This document shows positions 8,823 to 61,945 of a DNA stretch of 64,000 nucleotides, piece after piece. The translations under genes and the position numbers were made by a program. Where the stretch lies: the NCBI RefSeq assembly GCF_003018255.1, contig NZ_CP027440.1, one strand, 5' to 3'. The notes under the pieces are model-generated. The model worked only from the letters and a program-made list of their open reading frames with translations, made no database searches and was not told the DNA's origin. Numbering within the stretch: the first letter of the stretch is position 1; each line of letters begins with the position of its first letter. This DNA comes from Escherichia coli (GTDB lineage Bacteria > Pseudomonadota > Gammaproteobacteria > Enterobacterales > Enterobacteriaceae).

Positions 8823-10237
8823 CTACCCATCTGGTCTGGTTTCGCCAGGATTTACGTCAGCATGATAATCTCGCGCTGGCTGCCGCCTGCCGCAATTCGT
8901 CTGCAAGCGTGCTGGCGTTGTATATCGCTACACCACGCCAGTGGGCGGCGCATAATATGTCGCCGCGTCAGGCTGAATTTATCAATGCACAACTGAACGG
9001 GCTACAAATCGCGCTGGCGGAAAAAGGCATTCCTTTGCTGTTTCATGAAGTGGATGACTTTGCCGCCAGCGTCGAAATAGTTAAACAGGTGTGCGCGGAA
9101 AATCGTGTTACCCATCTGTTTTATAACTATCAGTATGAGGTGAATGAGCGGGCGCGGGATGTGCAGGCTGAGAGGGCGCTGCGTAACGTGGTGTGTGAAG
9201 GATTTGACGACGGCGTGATCCTGCCGCCGGGGGCGGTGATGACTGGCAATCATGAGATGTACAAAGTCTTTACGCCATTTAAAAACGCCTGGCTTAAACG
9301 GCTGCGAGAAGGGATGCCGGAGTGCGTCGCTGCGCCAAAAGTACGTAGTAGCGGATCGATAGATCCCGCGCCATCCATTACGCTGAATTATCCTCGTCAG
9401 CCTTTCGATACTGCGCATTTCCCGGTGGAAGAGAAAGCGGCGATTGCGCAATTACGCCAGTTTTGCCAGAACGGTGCCGGAGAGTATGAGCAACAGCGAG
9501 ATTTCCCTGCGGTAGAAGGCACCAGCCGTTTGTCCGCCAGCCTGGCAACGGGCGGGTTATCGCCTCGCCAGTGTTTGCATCGCCTGTTGGCGGAACAGCC
9601 GCAGGCGCTGGACGGTGGGGCCGGTAGTATCTGGCTTAATGAGCTGATCTGGCGCGAGTTTTACCGTCATCTGATAACGTATTACCCCTCGCTGTGTAAA
9701 CATCGTCCGTTTATTGTCTGGACCGACCGCGTGCAGTGGCAGAGCAATTCCGCGCATTTAAAGGCCTGGCAGGAAGGCAAAACGGGATACCCGATTGTTG
9801 ATGCTGCCATGCGTCAGCTTAACAGCACCGGCTGGATGCATAACCGGCTACGGATGATTACAGCCAGTTTTTTGGTGAAAGATTTATTGATCGACTGGCG
9901 CGAAGGTGAGCGATATTTCATGTCGCAGCTGATTGATGGTGATTTGGCAGCCAATAACGGTGGCTGGCAGTGGGCCGCTTCAACCGGAACCGATGCAGCG
10001 CCGTATTTTCGTATTTTTAACCCGACAACCCAGGGCGAGAAATTTGACCGTGAGGGCGAGTTTATCCGCCAGTGGCTACCGGAACTGCGCGATGTGCCAG
10101 GGAAAGTGGTGCATGAGCCGTGGAAGTGGGCGCAGAAAGCAGGTGTGACGCTGGATTATCCGCAACCGATAGTTGATCACAAAGAGGCAAGGCTGCGAAC
10201 GCTGGCAGCGTACGAAGAAGCGAGGAAAGGAGCCTGA
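8819..10237 (+). CDS. phr: Deoxyribodipyrimidine photolyase (472 aa)
   Basis: MTTHLVWFRQDLR... with FAD-binding C-terminal region (GWMHNRLRMITASFLVKDL, WQWAASTGTDAAPYFRIFNP). Confidence 0.95.
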   Translation: MTTHLVWFRQDLRQHDNLALAAACRNSSASVLALYIATPRQWAAHNMSPRQAEFINAQLNGLQIALAEKGIPLLFHEVDDFAASVEIVKQVCAENRVTHLFYNYQYEVNERARDVQAERALRNVVCEGFDDGVILPPGAVMTGNHEMYKVFTPFKNAWLKRLREGMPECVAAPKVRSSGSIDPAPSITLNYPRQPFDTAHFPVEEKAAIAQLRQFCQNGAGEYEQQRDFPAVEGTSRLSASLATGGLSPRQCLHRLLAEQPQALDGGAGSIWLNELIWREFYRHLITYYPSLCKHRPFIVWTDRVQWQSNSAHLKAWQEGKTGYPIVDAAMRQLNSTGWMHNRLRMITASFLVKDLLIDWREGERYFMSQLIDGDLAANNGGWQWAASTGTDAAPYFRIFNPTTQGEKFDREGEFIRQWLPELRDVPGKVVHEPWKWAQKAGVTLDYPQPIVDHKEARLRTLAAYEEARKGA

Positions 10238-10279
10238 TAAAACGCAGCGAGCGTCTTATCAGGCATCGGTGCTGGCCTG

Positions 10280-26900: not shown

Positions 26901-27617
26901 ATGAGACTCGAGTTTTCAATTTATCGCTATAACCCGGATGTTGATGATGCTCCGCGTATGCAGGATTACACCCTGGAAGCGGAAGAAGGTCGTGACATGA
27001 TGCTGCTGGATGCGCTTATCCAGCTGAAAGAGAAAGATCCCAGCCTGTCGTTCCGTCGCTCCTGCCGTGAAGGTGTGTGCGGTTCCGACGGTCTGAACAT
27101 GAACGGCAAGAATGGTCTGGCCTGTATTACCCCGATTTCGGCACTCAACCAGCCGGGCAAGAAGATTGTGATTCGCCCGCTGCCAGGTTTACCGGTGATC
27201 CGCGATTTGGTGGTAGACATGGGACAATTCTATGCGCAATATGAGAAAATTAAGCCTTACCTGTTGAATAATGGACAAAATCCGCCAGCTCGCGAGCATT
27301 TACAGATGCCAGAGCAGCGCGAAAAACTCGACGGGTTGTATGAATGTATTCTCTGCGCATGTTGTTCAACCTCTTGTCCGTCTTTCTGGTGGAATCCCGA
27401 TAAGTTTATCGGCCCGGCAGGCTTGTTAGCGGCATATCGTTTCCTGATCGATAGCCGTGATACCGAGACTGACAGCCGCCTCGACGGTTTGAGCGATGCA
27501 TTCAGTGTATTCCGCTGTCACAGCATCATGAACTGCGTCAGTGTATGTCCGAAGGGGCTGAACCCGACGCGCGCCATCGGCCATATCAAGTCGATGTTGT
27601 TGCAACGTAATGCGTAA
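26901..27617 (+). CDS. sdhB: Succinate dehydrogenase iron-sulfur subunit (238 aa)
   Basis: MRLEFSIYRYNPDVDDAPRMQDYTLEAEEGRDMMLLDALIQLK... with Cys clusters. Confidence 0.97.
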   Translation: MRLEFSIYRYNPDVDDAPRMQDYTLEAEEGRDMMLLDALIQLKEKDPSLSFRRSCREGVCGSDGLNMNGKNGLACITPISALNQPGKKIVIRPLPGLPVIRDLVVDMGQFYAQYEKIKPYLLNNGQNPPAREHLQMPEQREKLDGLYECILCACCSTSCPSFWWNPDKFIGPAGLLAAYRFLIDSRDTETDSRLDGLSDAFSVFRCHSIMNCVSVCPKGLNPTRAIGHIKSMLLQRNA

Positions 27618-27618
27618 A

Positions 27619-27742
27619 CCGTAGGCCTGAGAAGACGCGCAAGCGTCGCATCAGGCAACCAGTGCCGGATGCGGCGTGAACGCCTTATCCGGCCTACAAG
27701 TCATTACCCGTAGGCCTGATAAGCGCAGCGCATCAGGCGTAA
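27619..27742. repeat. Cluster of REP (BIME-type) palindromic elements between sdhB and sucA
   Basis: Three imperfect palindromes of the GCCTGATGCGACGC / GCCGGATGCGGCGTGAACGCCTTATCCGGCCTAC type in alternating orientation. Confidence 0.8.
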
Positions 27743-27917
27743 CAAAGAAATGCAGGAAATCTTTAAAAACTGCCCCTGACACTAAGACAGTTTTTAAAGG
27801 TTCCTTCGCGAGCCACTACGTAGACAAGAGCTCGCAAGTGAACCCCGGCACGCACATCACTGTGCGTGGTAGTATCCACGGCGAAGTAAGCATAAAAAAG
27901 ATGCTTAAGGGATCACG

Positions 27918-30719
27918 ATGCAGAACAGCGCTTTGAAAGCCTGGTTGGACTCTTCTTACCTCTCTGGCGCAAACCAGAGCTGGATAGAACAGCTCTATGA
28001 AGACTTCTTAACCGATCCTGACTCGGTTGACGCTAACTGGCGTTCGACGTTCCAGCAGTTACCTGGTACGGGAGTCAAACCGGATCAATTCCACTCTCAA
28101 ACGCGTGAATATTTCCGCCGCCTGGCGAAAGACGCTTCACGTTACTCTTCAACGATCTCCGACCCTGACACCAATGTGAAGCAGGTTAAAGTCCTGCAGC
28201 TCATTAACGCATACCGCTTCCGTGGTCACCAGCATGCGAATCTCGATCCGCTGGGACTGTGGCAGCAAGATAAAGTGGCCGATCTGGATCCGTCTTTCCA
28301 CGATCTGACCGAAGCAGACTTCCAGGAGACCTTCAACGTCGGTTCATTTGCCAGCGGCAAAGAAACCATGAAACTCGGCGAGCTGCTGGAAGCCCTCAAG
28401 CAAACCTACTGCGGCCCGATTGGTGCCGAGTATATGCACATTACCAGCACTGAAGAAAAACGCTGGATCCAACAGCGTATCGAGTCTGGTCGCGCGACTT
28501 TCAATAGCGAAGAGAAAAAACGCTTCTTAAGCGAACTGACCGCCGCTGAAGGCCTTGAACGTTACCTCGGCGCAAAATTCCCTGGCGCAAAACGCTTCTC
28601 GCTGGAAGGTGGTGACGCGTTAATCCCGATGCTTAAAGAGATGATCCGCCACGCTGGCAACAGCGGCACCCGCGAAGTGGTTCTCGGGATGGCGCACCGT
28701 GGTCGTCTGAACGTGCTGGTGAACGTGCTGGGTAAAAAACCGCAAGACTTGTTCGACGAGTTTGCCGGTAAACATAAAGAACACCTCGGCACGGGCGACG
28801 TGAAATACCACATGGGCTTCTCGTCTGACTTCCAGACCGATGGCGGCCTGGTGCACCTGGCGCTGGCGTTTAACCCGTCTCACCTTGAGATTGTAAGCCC
28901 GGTCGTTATCGGTTCTGTTCGTGCCCGTCTGGACAGACTTGATGAGCCGAGCAGCAACAAAGTGCTGCCAATCACCATTCATGGTGACGCCGCAGTGACC
29001 GGGCAGGGCGTGGTTCAGGAAACCCTGAACATGTCGAAAGCGCGTGGTTATGAAGTTGGCGGTACGGTACGTATCGTTATCAACAACCAGGTTGGCTTCA
29101 CCACCTCTAACCCGCTGGATGCCCGTTCGACGCCGTACTGTACTGATATCGGCAAGATGGTACAGGCACCGATTTTCCACGTTAATGCGGATGATCCGGA
29201 AGCCGTTGCTTTTGTGACCCGTCTGGCGCTCGATTTCCGTAACACCTTTAAACGTGATGTCTTCATCGACCTGGTGTGCTACCGCCGTCACGGCCACAAC
29301 GAAGCCGACGAGCCGAGCGCAACCCAGCCGCTGATGTATCAGAAAATCAAAAAACATCCGACGCCGCGCAAAATCTATGCTGACAAGCTGGAGCAGGAAA
29401 AAGTCGCGACGCTGGAAGATGCCACCGAGATGGTTAACCTGTACCGCGATGCGCTGGATGCTGGCGATTGCGTTGTAGCAGAGTGGCGTCCGATGAACAT
29501 GCACTCTTTCACCTGGTCGCCGTACCTCAACCACGAATGGGACGAAGAGTACCCGAACAAAGTTGAGATGAAGCGCCTGCAGGAACTGGCTAAACGCATC
29601 AGCACGGTGCCGGAAGCAGTTGAAATGCAGTCTCGCGTTGCCAAGATTTATGGCGATCGCCAGGCGATGGCTGCTGGTGAGAAACTGTTCGACTGGGGCG
29701 GCGCGGAAAACCTCGCTTACGCCACGCTGGTTGATGAAGGCATTCCGGTTCGCCTGTCGGGTGAAGACTCCGGTCGCGGTACCTTCTTCCACCGCCACGC
29801 GGTGATCCACAACCAGTCTAACGGTTCCACTTACACGCCGCTGCAACATATCCATAACGGTCAGGGCGCGTTCCGTGTCTGGGACTCCGTACTGTCAGAA
29901 GAAGCCGTGCTGGCGTTTGAATACGGTTATGCCACCGCAGAACCACGCACTCTGACCATCTGGGAAGCGCAGTTCGGTGACTTCGCCAACGGTGCGCAGG
30001 TGGTTATCGACCAGTTCATCTCCTCTGGCGAACAGAAATGGGGCCGGATGTGTGGCCTGGTGATGTTGCTGCCGCACGGTTACGAAGGGCAGGGGCCGGA
30101 GCACTCCTCCGCGCGTCTGGAACGTTATCTGCAACTTTGCGCTGAGCAAAACATGCAGGTGTGCGTACCTTCTACCCCGGCACAGGTTTACCACATGCTG
30201 CGTCGTCAGGCGTTGCGCGGGATGCGTCGTCCACTGGTCGTGATGTCGCCGAAATCCCTGCTGCGTCATCCGCTGGCGGTATCCAGCCTCGAAGAACTGG
30301 CGAACGGCACCTTCCTGCCAGCCATCGGTGAAATCGACGAGCTTGATCCGAAGGGCGTGAAGCGCGTAGTGATGTGTTCTGGTAAGGTTTATTACGACCT
30401 GCTGGAACAACGTCGTAAGAACAATCAACACGATGTCGCCATTGTGCGTATCGAGCAACTCTACCCGTTCCCGCATAAAGCGATGCAGGAAGTGTTGCAG
30501 CAGTTTGCTCACGTCAAGGATTTTGTCTGGTGCCAGGAAGAGCCGCTCAATCAGGGCGCATGGTACTGCAGCCAGCATCATTTCCGTGAAGTGATTCCGT
30601 TTGGGGCTTCTCTGCGTTATGCAGGCCGCCCGGCCTCCGCCTCTCCGGCGGTAGGGTATATGTCCGTTCACCAGAAACAGCAACAAGATCTGGTTAATGA
30701 CGCGCTGAACGTCGAATAA
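27918..30719 (+). CDS. sucA: 2-oxoglutarate dehydrogenase E1 component (933 aa)
   Basis: [48 protein letters not shown]... Confidence 0.97.
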
Positions 30720-54301: not shown

Positions 54302-54847
<546 letters not shown>

Positions 54848-54856
54848 GAGAATTGC

Positions 54857-55648
54857 ATGAGCAGTAACTTCAGACATCAACTATTGAGTCTGTCGTTACT
54901 GGTTGGTATAGCGGCCCCCTGGGCCGCTTTTGCTCAGGCACCAATCAGTAGTGTCGGCTCAGGCTCGGTCGAAGACCGCGTCACTCAACTTGAGCGTATT
55001 TCAAATGCTCACAGCCAGCTTTTAACCCAACTCCAGCAACAACTCTCTGATAATCAATCCGATATTGATTCCCTGCGCGGTCAGATTCAGGAAAATCAGT
55101 ATCAACTGAATCAGGTCGTGGAGCGGCAAAAGCAGATCCTGTTGCAGATCGATAGCCTCAGCAGCGGTGGTGCAGCGGCGCAATCAACCAGCGGTGATCA
55201 AAGCGGTGCGGCGGCATCAACGACGCCGACAGCTGATGCTGGTACTGCGAATGCTGGCGCGCCGGTGAAAAGCGGCGATGCAAACACGGATTACAATGCA
55301 GCAATTGCGCTGGTGCAGGATAAATCCCGCCAGGATGAAGCAATAGTGGCATTTCAGAATTTCATCAAAAATTACCCTGATTCAACTTACCTGCCAAACG
55401 CCAATTATTGGCTGGGTCAGTTAAACTACAACAAGGGTAAAAAAGATGATGCGGCGTATTATTTTGCTTCGGTAGTGAAAAACTATCCGAAGTCACCGAA
55501 GGCTGCAGATGCGATGTTTAAAGTCGGCGTCATCATGCAGGACAAAGGTGACACCGCAAAAGCGAAAGCCGTATACCAGCAGGTTATCAGTAAATACCCT
55601 GGTACTGATGGCGCTAAACAGGCGCAAAAACGTCTGAACGCGATGTAA
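54857..55648 (+). CDS. cpoB: Cell division coordinator CpoB (YbgF), TPR protein (263 aa)
   Basis: MSSNFRHQLLSLSLLVGIAAPWAAFAQ signal peptide, coiled coil, TPR repeats. Confidence 0.95.
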   Translation: MSSNFRHQLLSLSLLVGIAAPWAAFAQAPISSVGSGSVEDRVTQLERISNAHSQLLTQLQQQLSDNQSDIDSLRGQIQENQYQLNQVVERQKQILLQIDSLSSGGAAAQSTSGDQSGAAASTTPTADAGTANAGAPVKSGDANTDYNAAIALVQDKSRQDEAIVAFQNFIKNYPDSTYLPNANYWLGQLNYNKGKKDDAAYYFASVVKNYPKSPKAADAMFKVGVIMQDKGDTAKAKAVYQQVISKYPGTDGAKQAQKRLNAM

Positions 55649-55812: not shown

Positions 55813-55888
55813 GGGTCGTTAGCTCAGTTGGTAGAGCAGTTGACTTTTAATCAATTGGTCGCAGGTTCGAATCCTGCACGACCCACCA
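55813..55888 (+). tRNA. lysT: tRNA-Lys (anticodon UUU)
   Basis: GGGTCGTTAGCTCAGTTGGTAGAGCAGTTGACTTTTAATCAATTGGTCGCAGGTTCGAATCCTGCACGACCCACCA. Confidence 0.95.
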
Positions 55889-56023
55889 ATCGCTAAGGTG
55901 GAAGCGGTAGTAAAACGTGAAGGATAACGTTGCGTCAGCAACGGCCCGAAGGGCGAGACGAAGTCGAGTCATCCTGCACGACCCACCACTAACCTAGTTA
56001 GTTGTAGTATCCAGCGTAGTATC

Positions 56024-56099
56024 GGGTGATTAGCTCAGCTGGGAGAGCACCTCCCTTACAAGGAGGGGGTCGGCGGTTCGATCCCGTCATCACCCACCA
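56024..56099 (+). tRNA. valT: tRNA-Val (anticodon UAC)
   Basis: GGGTGATTAGCTCAGCTGGGAGAGCACCTCCCTTACAAGGAGGGGGTCGGCGGTTCGATCCCGTCATCACCCACCA. Confidence 0.95.
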
Positions 56100-56101
56100 C
56101 C

Positions 56102-56177
56102 GGGTCGTTAGCTCAGTTGGTAGAGCAGTTGACTTTTAATCAATTGGTCGCAGGTTCGAATCCTGCACGACCCACCA
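56102..56177 (+). tRNA. lysW: tRNA-Lys (UUU)
   Basis: Identical to the lysT sequence. Confidence 0.95.
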
Positions 56178-56228
56178 CTAATTACGGTGGGTTCGGTGGA
56201 AGTAGTTTGTAGTATTCAGCGCAGTATC

Positions 56229-56304
56229 GGGTGATTAGCTCAGCTGGGAGAGCACCTCCCTTACAAGGAGGGGGTCGGCGGTTCGATCCCGTCATCACCC
56301 ACCA
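56229..56304 (+). tRNA. valZ: tRNA-Val (UAC)
   Basis: Identical to the valT sequence. Confidence 0.95.
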
Positions 56305-56307
56305 CTC

Positions 56308-56383
56308 GGGTCGTTAGCTCAGTTGGTAGAGCAGTTGACTTTTAATCAATTGGTCGCAGGTTCGAATCCTGCACGACCCACCA
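56308..56383 (+). tRNA. lysY: tRNA-Lys (UUU)
   Basis: Identical to the lysT sequence. Confidence 0.95.
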
Positions 56384-56529
56384 GTTTTAACATCAAACTC
56401 AGATGTTAAGCGTGAAGGATAACGTTGCGCCAGCAACGGCCCGTAGGGCGAGCGAAGCGAGTCATCCTGCACGACCCACCAATTTTAAAGATTGGTTCCG
56501 AGTAGAAATCTTTCAGGTAACACCCGTAT

Positions 56530-56605
56530 GGGTCGTTAGCTCAGTTGGTAGAGCAGTTGACTTTTAATCAATTGGTCGCAGGTTCGAATCCTGCACGACC
56601 CACCA
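56530..56605 (+). tRNA. lysZ: tRNA-Lys (UUU)
   Basis: Identical to the lysT sequence. Confidence 0.95.
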
Positions 56606-56638
56606 TCCTGAATGATTAAAGCAGCATAATCCCGCAAG

Positions 56639-56714
56639 GGGTCGTTAGCTCAGTTGGTAGAGCAGTTGACTTTTAATCAATTGGTCGCAGGTTCGAATCC
56701 TGCACGACCCACCA
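56639..56714 (+). tRNA. lysQ: tRNA-Lys (UUU)
   Basis: Identical to the lysT sequence. Confidence 0.95.
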
Positions 56715-57063
56715 ATGTAAAAAAGCGCCCTAAAGGCGCTTTTTTGCTATCTGCGATACTCAAAGATTCGAACCTGCAGCAGGTTCGAGTTGAGCGCAGC
56801 GAAACAACGGAGCCGCTCGCGGCGACGGCCCGTAGGGCGAGCGAAGCGAGTTATCCTGCACGACCCACCAATGTAAAAAAGCGCCCTAAAGGCGCTTTTT
56901 TGCTATCTGCGATACTCAAAGATTCGAACCTGCAGCAGGTTCGAGTTGAGCGCAGCGAAATAACGGAGCCGCTCGCGGCGACGGCCCGTAGGGCGAGCGA
57001 AGCGAGTCATCCTGCACGACCCACCAATGTAAAAAAGCGCCCTAAAGGCGCTTTTTTGCTATT
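56715..57063 (+). repeat. Tandem direct repeat, 156-bp period, about 2.2 copies; each unit carries a terminator hairpin and a tRNA-Lys 3-prime-end fragment
   Basis: Units 56715-56870 and 56871-57026 differ at about 3 positions; a partial third copy (terminator part) follows at 57027-57063; each unit ends ...ATCCTGCACGACCCACCA. Confidence 0.9.
56719..56747 (+). terminator. Rho-independent terminator after lysQ (repeated at about 56875 and 57031)
   Basis: AAAAAAGCGCCC-TAAA-GGCGCTTTTTTG hairpin with T run. Confidence 0.85.
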
Positions 57064-61875: not shown

Positions 61876-61907
61876 TTTATAGTCGAATCGCCATGACTGT
61901 ACGTTTG

Positions 61908-61945
61908 CAGCCCTGATAAGACGCGCAGCGTAGCATCAGGCAATG
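61908..61945. repeat. REP palindromic element downstream of aroG
   Basis: GCCCTGATAAGACGCGCAGCGTAGCATCAGGC palindrome. Confidence 0.7.

Follow-up and report, generated by a model that had tools for sequence, protein, structure and literature searches.

An apparently atypical BIME of three REP units in the sdhB-sucA spacer of Escherichia coli

Background

REP sequences in the intercistronic regions malE-malF and hisJ-hisQ are reportedly stabilisers of mRNA, a role attributed to the work of Newbury and Higgins. Intercistronic REPs are also the subject of Higgins 1982, which stands as reference 4 in PMC12306157. The same paper, citing Liang 2015, states that REPs lying no more than 15 nt from a stop codon stall ribosomes and lower the expression of the upstream gene. 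The names of REP units and BIMEs follow Gilson, Bachellier, and Hofnung, whose nomenclature is summarised in PMC3333891. A defining feature of a REP is the GTAG foot, and REPs are combined into BIMEs: BIME-1 has z1 and y units with a long L linker, often with an IHF site, and is present in single copy; BIME-2 has z2 and y units with a short S linker and is present in tandem copies; and BIME-1/BIME-2 chimeras are designated as atypical (PMC3333891). The number of BIME units is variable, with amplification by TnpA-REP (PMC3333891). Two insertion sequences, IS1397 and IS621, are documented as REP-specific (PMC1525189).

The sdhB-sucA spacer has already been studied with respect to an internal terminator, a promoter, RNase III processing, and targeting by the sRNA GlnZ. 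The genes sdhCDAB and sucABCD are transcribed together; between sdhB and sucA there is internal termination as well as an additional promoter (PMC6393394). The terminator is partial and the promoter weak (PMC6393394, PMC4161252), and their interplay balances the coverage of both halves of the transcript (PMC4161252). Three RNase III sites were reported in the spacer, and SucA is lower in an rnc mutant (PMC9731577). An RNA-seq screen revealed RNase III-dependent read depletion at NC_000913.3:758515 (PMC5371410).

Locus and REP Units

The window (the whole stretch of E. coli DNA analysed, 64 kb long) agrees in gene order and sequence with sdhCDAB-sucABCD of E. coli K-12. The spacer between the sdhB stop at 27617 and the sucA start at 27918 is 300 nt long. 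It differs from that of MG1655 by a single base change in REP1 (GAGAAG here, GATAAG in MG1655; G, not T, at 27632), and it is identical to the spacer of strain 2014C-3338. A sequence-only reading had placed the element between two TCA-cycle operons; its place in the spacer is correct, but the operons are not separate, as sdhCDAB-sucABCD forms one read-through unit (PMC6393394, PMC4161252). The features of the locus are:

26901-27617, plus strand, sdhB, with the stop codon TAA at 27615-27617
27619-27742, the whole BIME, consisting of three REPs and two short linkers
27621-27656, minus strand, REP1, z1-type, 36 nt, GTAG foot at 27621-27624, minus-strand reading GCCTGATGCGACGCTTGCGCGTCTTCTCAGGCCTAC
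27657-27663, REP1-REP2 linker AACCAGT, 7 nt, head-to-head, too short for the BIME-1 L motif
27664-27697, plus strand, REP2, y-type, 34 nt, CTAC foot at 27694-27697, GCCGGATGCGGCGTGAACGCCTTATCCGGCCTAC
27698-27709, REP2-REP3 linker AAGTCATTACCC, 12 nt, tail-to-tail
27710-27738, minus strand, REP3, short z2-type, 29 nt, GTAG foot at 27710-27713, GCCTGATGCGCTGCGCTTATCAGGCCTAC
27752-27808, plus strand, long hairpin rich in A/U, just past the BIME, AAATCTTTAAAAACTG / CAGTTTTTAAAGGTT, -18.8 kcal/mol
27803-27917, plus strand, structured and conserved sucA leader, with hairpins at 27810-27835, 27849-27870, and 27887-27907
27918-30719, plus strand, sucA, with the start codon at 27918-27920

Three palindromes in alternating orientation had been proposed for 27619-27742, and these coordinates bracket the units exactly. 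Along the plus strand, the foot tetranucleotides are GTAG at 27621, CTAC at 27694, and GTAG at 27710, and the orientation is thus alternating (-, +, -). The consensus search named beforehand as the check gave one mismatch for REP1 over the 36-nt REP consensus used here, and none of 100 shuffles of the window that preserved dinucleotides contained a match; the typed REP patterns had no match in 20 shuffles. The tail motif YTWATCMGGCCTAC, with at most one mismatch allowed, has only three sites in the whole window, and these are the three REPs. The inner stems of the 36-nt and 29-nt units differ when read directly, with GCGACGC..GCGTC in the former and GCGC..GCGC in the latter. Measured from the sdhB stop codon, REP1 starts at a distance of 4 nt and its stem at 8 nt.

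Folded as single units, REP1, REP2, and REP3 form hairpins of -21.1, -21.3, and -14.5 kcal/mol, respectively, with internal loops. Taken together as RNA, the cluster is more stable than its shuffles (fold z-score -5.45). Little energy separates the structure with three local hairpins (-56.9 kcal/mol) from one with pairing between REPs (-60.3 kcal/mol), and the conformation of the RNA in vivo is therefore uncertain.

Two solitary degenerate REP-like palindromes lie elsewhere in the window. One, at 10232-10268 (plus strand), differs from the z1 pattern at six positions and lies in the phr-dtpD region; the other, at 61907-61941 (minus strand), differs at three and lies near the modF 3' end. Both were placed by correspondence with MG1655, with which the window is not perfectly collinear around them. 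In an Rfam scan at gathering thresholds, the CpoB/ybgF thermometer was recognized and then seven tRNA genes interleaved with RtT repeats (54748-54886 and 55813-57026). The thermometer and the tRNA/RtT cluster are expected features of this chromosomal region.

Repeat Family and BIME Class

A 401-nt query matched 5,425 of 5,426 complete E. coli genomes at a median of at least 38 places per genome, with up to 40 pieces counted per record, so the element contains a high-copy dispersed repeat. Its units are imperfect palindromes of the 30-40 nt class with GTAG/CTAC feet, a match to the REP consensus, an extragenic site, and a high copy number, as is characteristic of REPs. As is characteristic of BIMEs, at least two REPs alternate, the linkers are 7 and 12 nt long, and the copy number varies among strains. 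Identity as REP/BIME held in every test run; it belongs to known biology, the family having been described since the 1980s.

The order of parts is z1, 7-nt linker, y, 12-nt linker, z2. BIME-1 (RIP/RIB) was rejected because the z1-y linker is of 7 nt only, an IHF site is absent (no match to the consensus WATCAANNNNTTR in the sdhB-sucA spacer), and other strains have the unit amplified in tandem. A clean BIME-2 was also rejected, since it is z1 that the short head-to-head linker connects with y, and the lone z2 stands tail-to-tail and only in the K-12-type allele. As neither canonical class is satisfied, the element is classified, according to typing by consensus patterns, as an atypical (chimeric) BIME.

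The only Rfam family matched in the spacer was naRNA4 (RF02564) at 27624-27694, for which the gathering score is 59.5; the minus strand scored 82 bits and the plus (operon) strand 47.1. A separate gene for a small RNA of the naRNA4 family on the minus strand was considered most improbable in spite of the minus-strand score, because the model is built on one REP325 unit and recognizes any y/z pair, the units matched are y and z1 instead of y-l-z2, both neighbouring genes and the operon are transcribed from the plus strand, which scores below threshold, and no promoter-like site was found on either strand of 27400-28100.

Alleles in E. coli and IS1397

Representative alleles of the spacer were read, and their frequencies were counted in two sets of 60 genomes, each drawn systematically at even intervals from the match ranking of 5,425 complete E. 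coli genomes. The alleles are:

Spacer of 300 nt, three REPs, present in the window, K-12, and O157:H7
Spacer of 349 or 361 nt, four REPs, two 95-nt z1-S-y units
Spacer of 455-456 nt, six REPs
Spacer of 550 nt, eight REPs
Spacer of 200 nt, no REP, the BIME being replaced by TTAAATGTTGATGCCGGGGAAATCCCCCGGCTATTC

The allele with three REPs was found in 25 and 23 genomes of the two samples, respectively (about 40%), and the REP-less allele in 19 and 20 (about 33%). Four REPs were present in 12 genomes of each sample and six or eight in three and four, respectively, so that alleles with four, six, or eight REPs together make up about 25%. An allele with an IS1397 insertion was found once in each sample, at the bottom of the ranking. 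The alleles vary by whole 95-nt z1-y units. A REP-associated tyrosine transposase mobilises and amplifies REPs, and the number of units at the site therefore differs among strains. The linker AAGTCATTACCC is confined, among the alleles read, to the K-12-type allele with three REPs. This allele looks like one z1-y unit with z2 and the linker inserted past the CTAC of the y unit, and such an insertion would be the kind of event predicted by the TnpA-REP model. In the REP-less 200-nt allele there is a GC hairpin GCCGGGG..CCCCCGGC, with -17.9 kcal/mol and a z-score of -2.9, and the flanks of the REP-less alleles are 99.6-100% identical to the window. Since about one third of E. coli genomes have no REPs here, REPs as such are dispensable at this site.

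In strain ET979 (locus L009, 529-622, corresponding approximately to window 27646-27739), a frameshifted partial 'hypothetical protein' pseudogene was annotated by PGAP over the REP cluster. This gene call appears to be an artefact of the repeat; a REP element can thus mislead automated annotation.

In strain SK0832 (locus L007, 966-2314), the annotation shows IS1397, a member of the IS3 family, between sdhB and sucA and oriented like the operon. The first junction reads GACGCACAA / TGAACTGCACCCC and the second GGGGTTCAGTTCA / CAAGCGTCGC, with a CAA duplication flanking the element, and according to these junctions IS1397 sits in the loop of REP1. The same junction is present in only two of 5,425 genomes, SK0832 and BH100N. 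When the 300 nt at the end of sdhB were joined to the 300 nt at the start of sucA and used as a query, 5,423 of 5,425 genomes covered it at a single place, and large insertions at the site are therefore limited to these two. In both strains, IS1397 presumably separates sucABCD from the sdh promoter. The claim of a known IS hotspot is thus valid for REPs as a class (PMC1525189), but not for the sdhB-sucA site, which is hit in two of 5,425 genomes.

The Slot after sdhB in Other Species

With a degenerate DNA pattern for the SdhB C-terminus and one genome per species, 120 loci were obtained, and the sdhB-sucA spacer was delimited in about 110 of them, with lengths of 86-660 nt. The roughly 160 nt at the 3' end of the spacer are conserved in Enterobacteriaceae, and the segment right after the sdhB stop is a variable slot. 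In Salmonella enterica arizonae and diarizonae, as well as in Citrobacter sedlakii, the slot contains a plain hairpin GCCGGGGAA..TTCCCCGG, which is homologous to the REP-less allele of E. coli. Genus-specific REP pairs occupy it in another Citrobacter, Kluyvera georgiana, Pluralibacter, Pseudescherichia, and Pseudenterobacter. Superficieibacter has a y-type REP followed by six z-type REPs, E. albertii has eight REPs, and palindromes of the CCCTCTCCC/GGGAGAGGG type are present in several Kluyvera, Enterobacter, Leclercia, and Cedecea. A slot without REPs was never empty among the related species examined, as another GC-rich palindrome is there, which suggests that a hairpin is needed whatever its origin. 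In about 45 Enterobacterales spacers with a downstream anchor, the slot is more stably folded than its shuffles in nearly all cases, with z-scores mostly of -2 to -11, and a few species have slots with no such excess of stability (z about -0.4 to -1.1). Judging from these sequences, the plain GC hairpin seems to be the ancestral state, replaced by REPs in this lineage. A stable stem-loop after sdhB would then be the retained feature, with REPs as one of several interchangeable providers.

The hairpin at 27752-27808 has a stem conserved across Enterobacteriaceae, and its loop is a second slot for repeat insertion in other genera. An ERIC-like insert of about 127 nt was seen in this loop in Salmonella diarizonae, Kluyvera, Enterobacter, and Phytobacter; it is a putative ERIC by the ERIC primer sequences. 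Other genera have an insert of the CCCTCTCCC/GGGAGAGGG type in the same loop. The observations on loop inserts come from loci L117, L022, L119, L011, L107, L037, L057, L128, and L097.

No Rfam family was matched by the sucA leader (27803-27917). When it was analysed in RNAalifold, the complete set of 71 sequences was uninformative due to large lineage-specific insertions, and a subset of 28 sequences was usable. GGUUCC (27803-27808) and GUGAACCC (27838-27845) are each complementary to the Shine-Dalgarno region of sucA, AAGGGAUCAC. The former is invariant in 71 unique sequences and the latter in 28, and for this reason there is no covariation to test in them. The hairpin at 27849-27870 has AU/GC covariation, the stem GCGAGC/GCUCGC being changed to GCGGAC/GUCCGC in B2-type E. 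coli, E. albertii, and Salmonella.

Proposed Function of the Element

The explanation that fits best, and which we hold with considerable confidence, is an atypical BIME in the sdhB-sucA spacer that most likely acts as RNA hairpins in the read-through mRNA. Its most likely function would be that of an RNA hairpin protecting or partly ending the sdhCDAB part of the transcript, because the slot is palindromic and usually better folded than shuffles across about 45 Enterobacterales species. The stabilising or attenuating role proposed for the palindromes in the sequence-only reading is the standard one for such elements; it is plausible by analogy and fits the cross-species data, its basis being the behaviour of the class and the conservation of some hairpin at the slot.

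In this mechanism, the long hairpin at 27752-27808, which is the likeliest RNase III substrate in the spacer, would be cut by RNase III, after which the REP hairpins would block 3'-to-5' exonucleases and protect the upstream sdhCDAB mRNA. The hairpins would probably also contribute to the partial, factor-dependent termination reported in the spacer. As the stem of REP1 lies so near the sdhB stop, an effect on translation is possible, and the stem may damp translation termination of sdhB. Converted via the sdhB end at 758405, position 758515 of NC_000913.3 falls within REP3 at window 27727, 25 nt before the long hairpin begins. The depletion reported there may reflect cleavage in this adjacent hairpin instead, and its position is doubtful because short reads map ambiguously in repeated sequence. 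The designation 'P67/sucA' in PMC5371410 may be a truncated 'REP67'; repeat_region features are absent from the MG1655 RefSeq record.

An intrinsic (Rho-independent) terminator was rejected. No T-run follows any of the three REPs in the cluster sequence, so the hairpins have no U-tract, and a promoter and terminator scan of 27400-28100 on both strands gave no promoter-like and no terminator-like site, by which the element is no intrinsic terminator.

It is rather unlikely, although it is the best of the alternatives, that the BIME is a selfish, essentially neutral passenger in a permissive non-coding site with no effect on sdh/suc expression. The polymorphism from zero to eight REPs within one species, the REP-less alleles with practically unchanged flanks, and the documented amplification by TnpA-REP (PMC3333891) would all be expected of a passenger. 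A passenger does not account for a slot that is never empty in the relatives examined and whose substitute palindrome usually folds better than shuffles, nor for the internal termination and processing reported in the spacer. The RNA-hairpin explanation could be extended to a slot under selection for an RNA hairpin and filled again and again by unrelated elements in Enterobacterales, with the number of REPs (0, 3, 4, 6, or 8) tuning the sdh-to-suc expression by lineage; we regard this extension as unlikely. If it were true, REP number would set how much transcription and mRNA stability pass from sdh to the genes for 2-oxoglutarate dehydrogenase and succinyl-CoA synthetase, and the ratios of TCA-cycle enzymes would be lineage-specific.

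Still less probable is that the BIME, by analogy with others, serves as a DNA-level architectural site (duplex or cruciform) for gyrase, DNA polymerase I, or HU. Such activities are reported for BIMEs as a class (PMC1525189, PMC4550694). The y and z pair with a short linker, matched by the Rfam naRNA4 model, resembles the gyrase-binding BIME-2 core, and a site of this kind would serve nucleoid organisation and the relief of supercoiling between highly transcribed genes. However, gyrase cleavage is characterised for y-S-z2, while here the short linker joins y to z1; moreover, there is no IHF consensus in the spacer, and the element is missing from one third of strains.

The element has little weight as a discovery, and the value added is modest. 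The site offers a clean natural allele series, from the ancestral hairpin to three, four, six, and eight REPs, which would be a convenient test bed for the relation of REP number to polarity in an operon, and a hairpin of some origin is present at the slot in nearly all Enterobacterales species examined.

Comparison with Known Systems

With the E. coli REP/BIME family the element shares the imperfect palindromes of 29-36 nt, the GTAG/CTAC feet, the alternation, and the short linkers, as well as the extragenic position just past a stop codon, the high copy number, and a tandem number varying by strain. Compared to canonical BIMEs, z1 and z2 are here both mixed with y and only short linkers are present, and nothing essential is different.

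Similar to naRNA4/REP325 (RF02564; PMC4550694), the element has two neighbouring REP hairpins with a short linker and, on the minus strand, a model score above the gathering threshold. REP325 is arranged as six y-l-z2 units between yjdM and yjdN, whereas the arrangement here is y-S-z1, on the strand opposite to the operon transcript. As for the IS1397 target sites described in PMC1525189, insertion into a REP loop is shared by SK0832, while the window itself has no IS at this place.

The intercistronic REP regions malE-malF and hisJ-hisQ have, as this locus does, hairpins between cistrons, a few nt past the upstream stop. By analogy, 3' exonucleases would be expected to spare the upstream segment, as proposed for sdhCDAB. 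The difference from these two regions is that the downstream genes here have a weak promoter of their own and a leader processed by RNase III.
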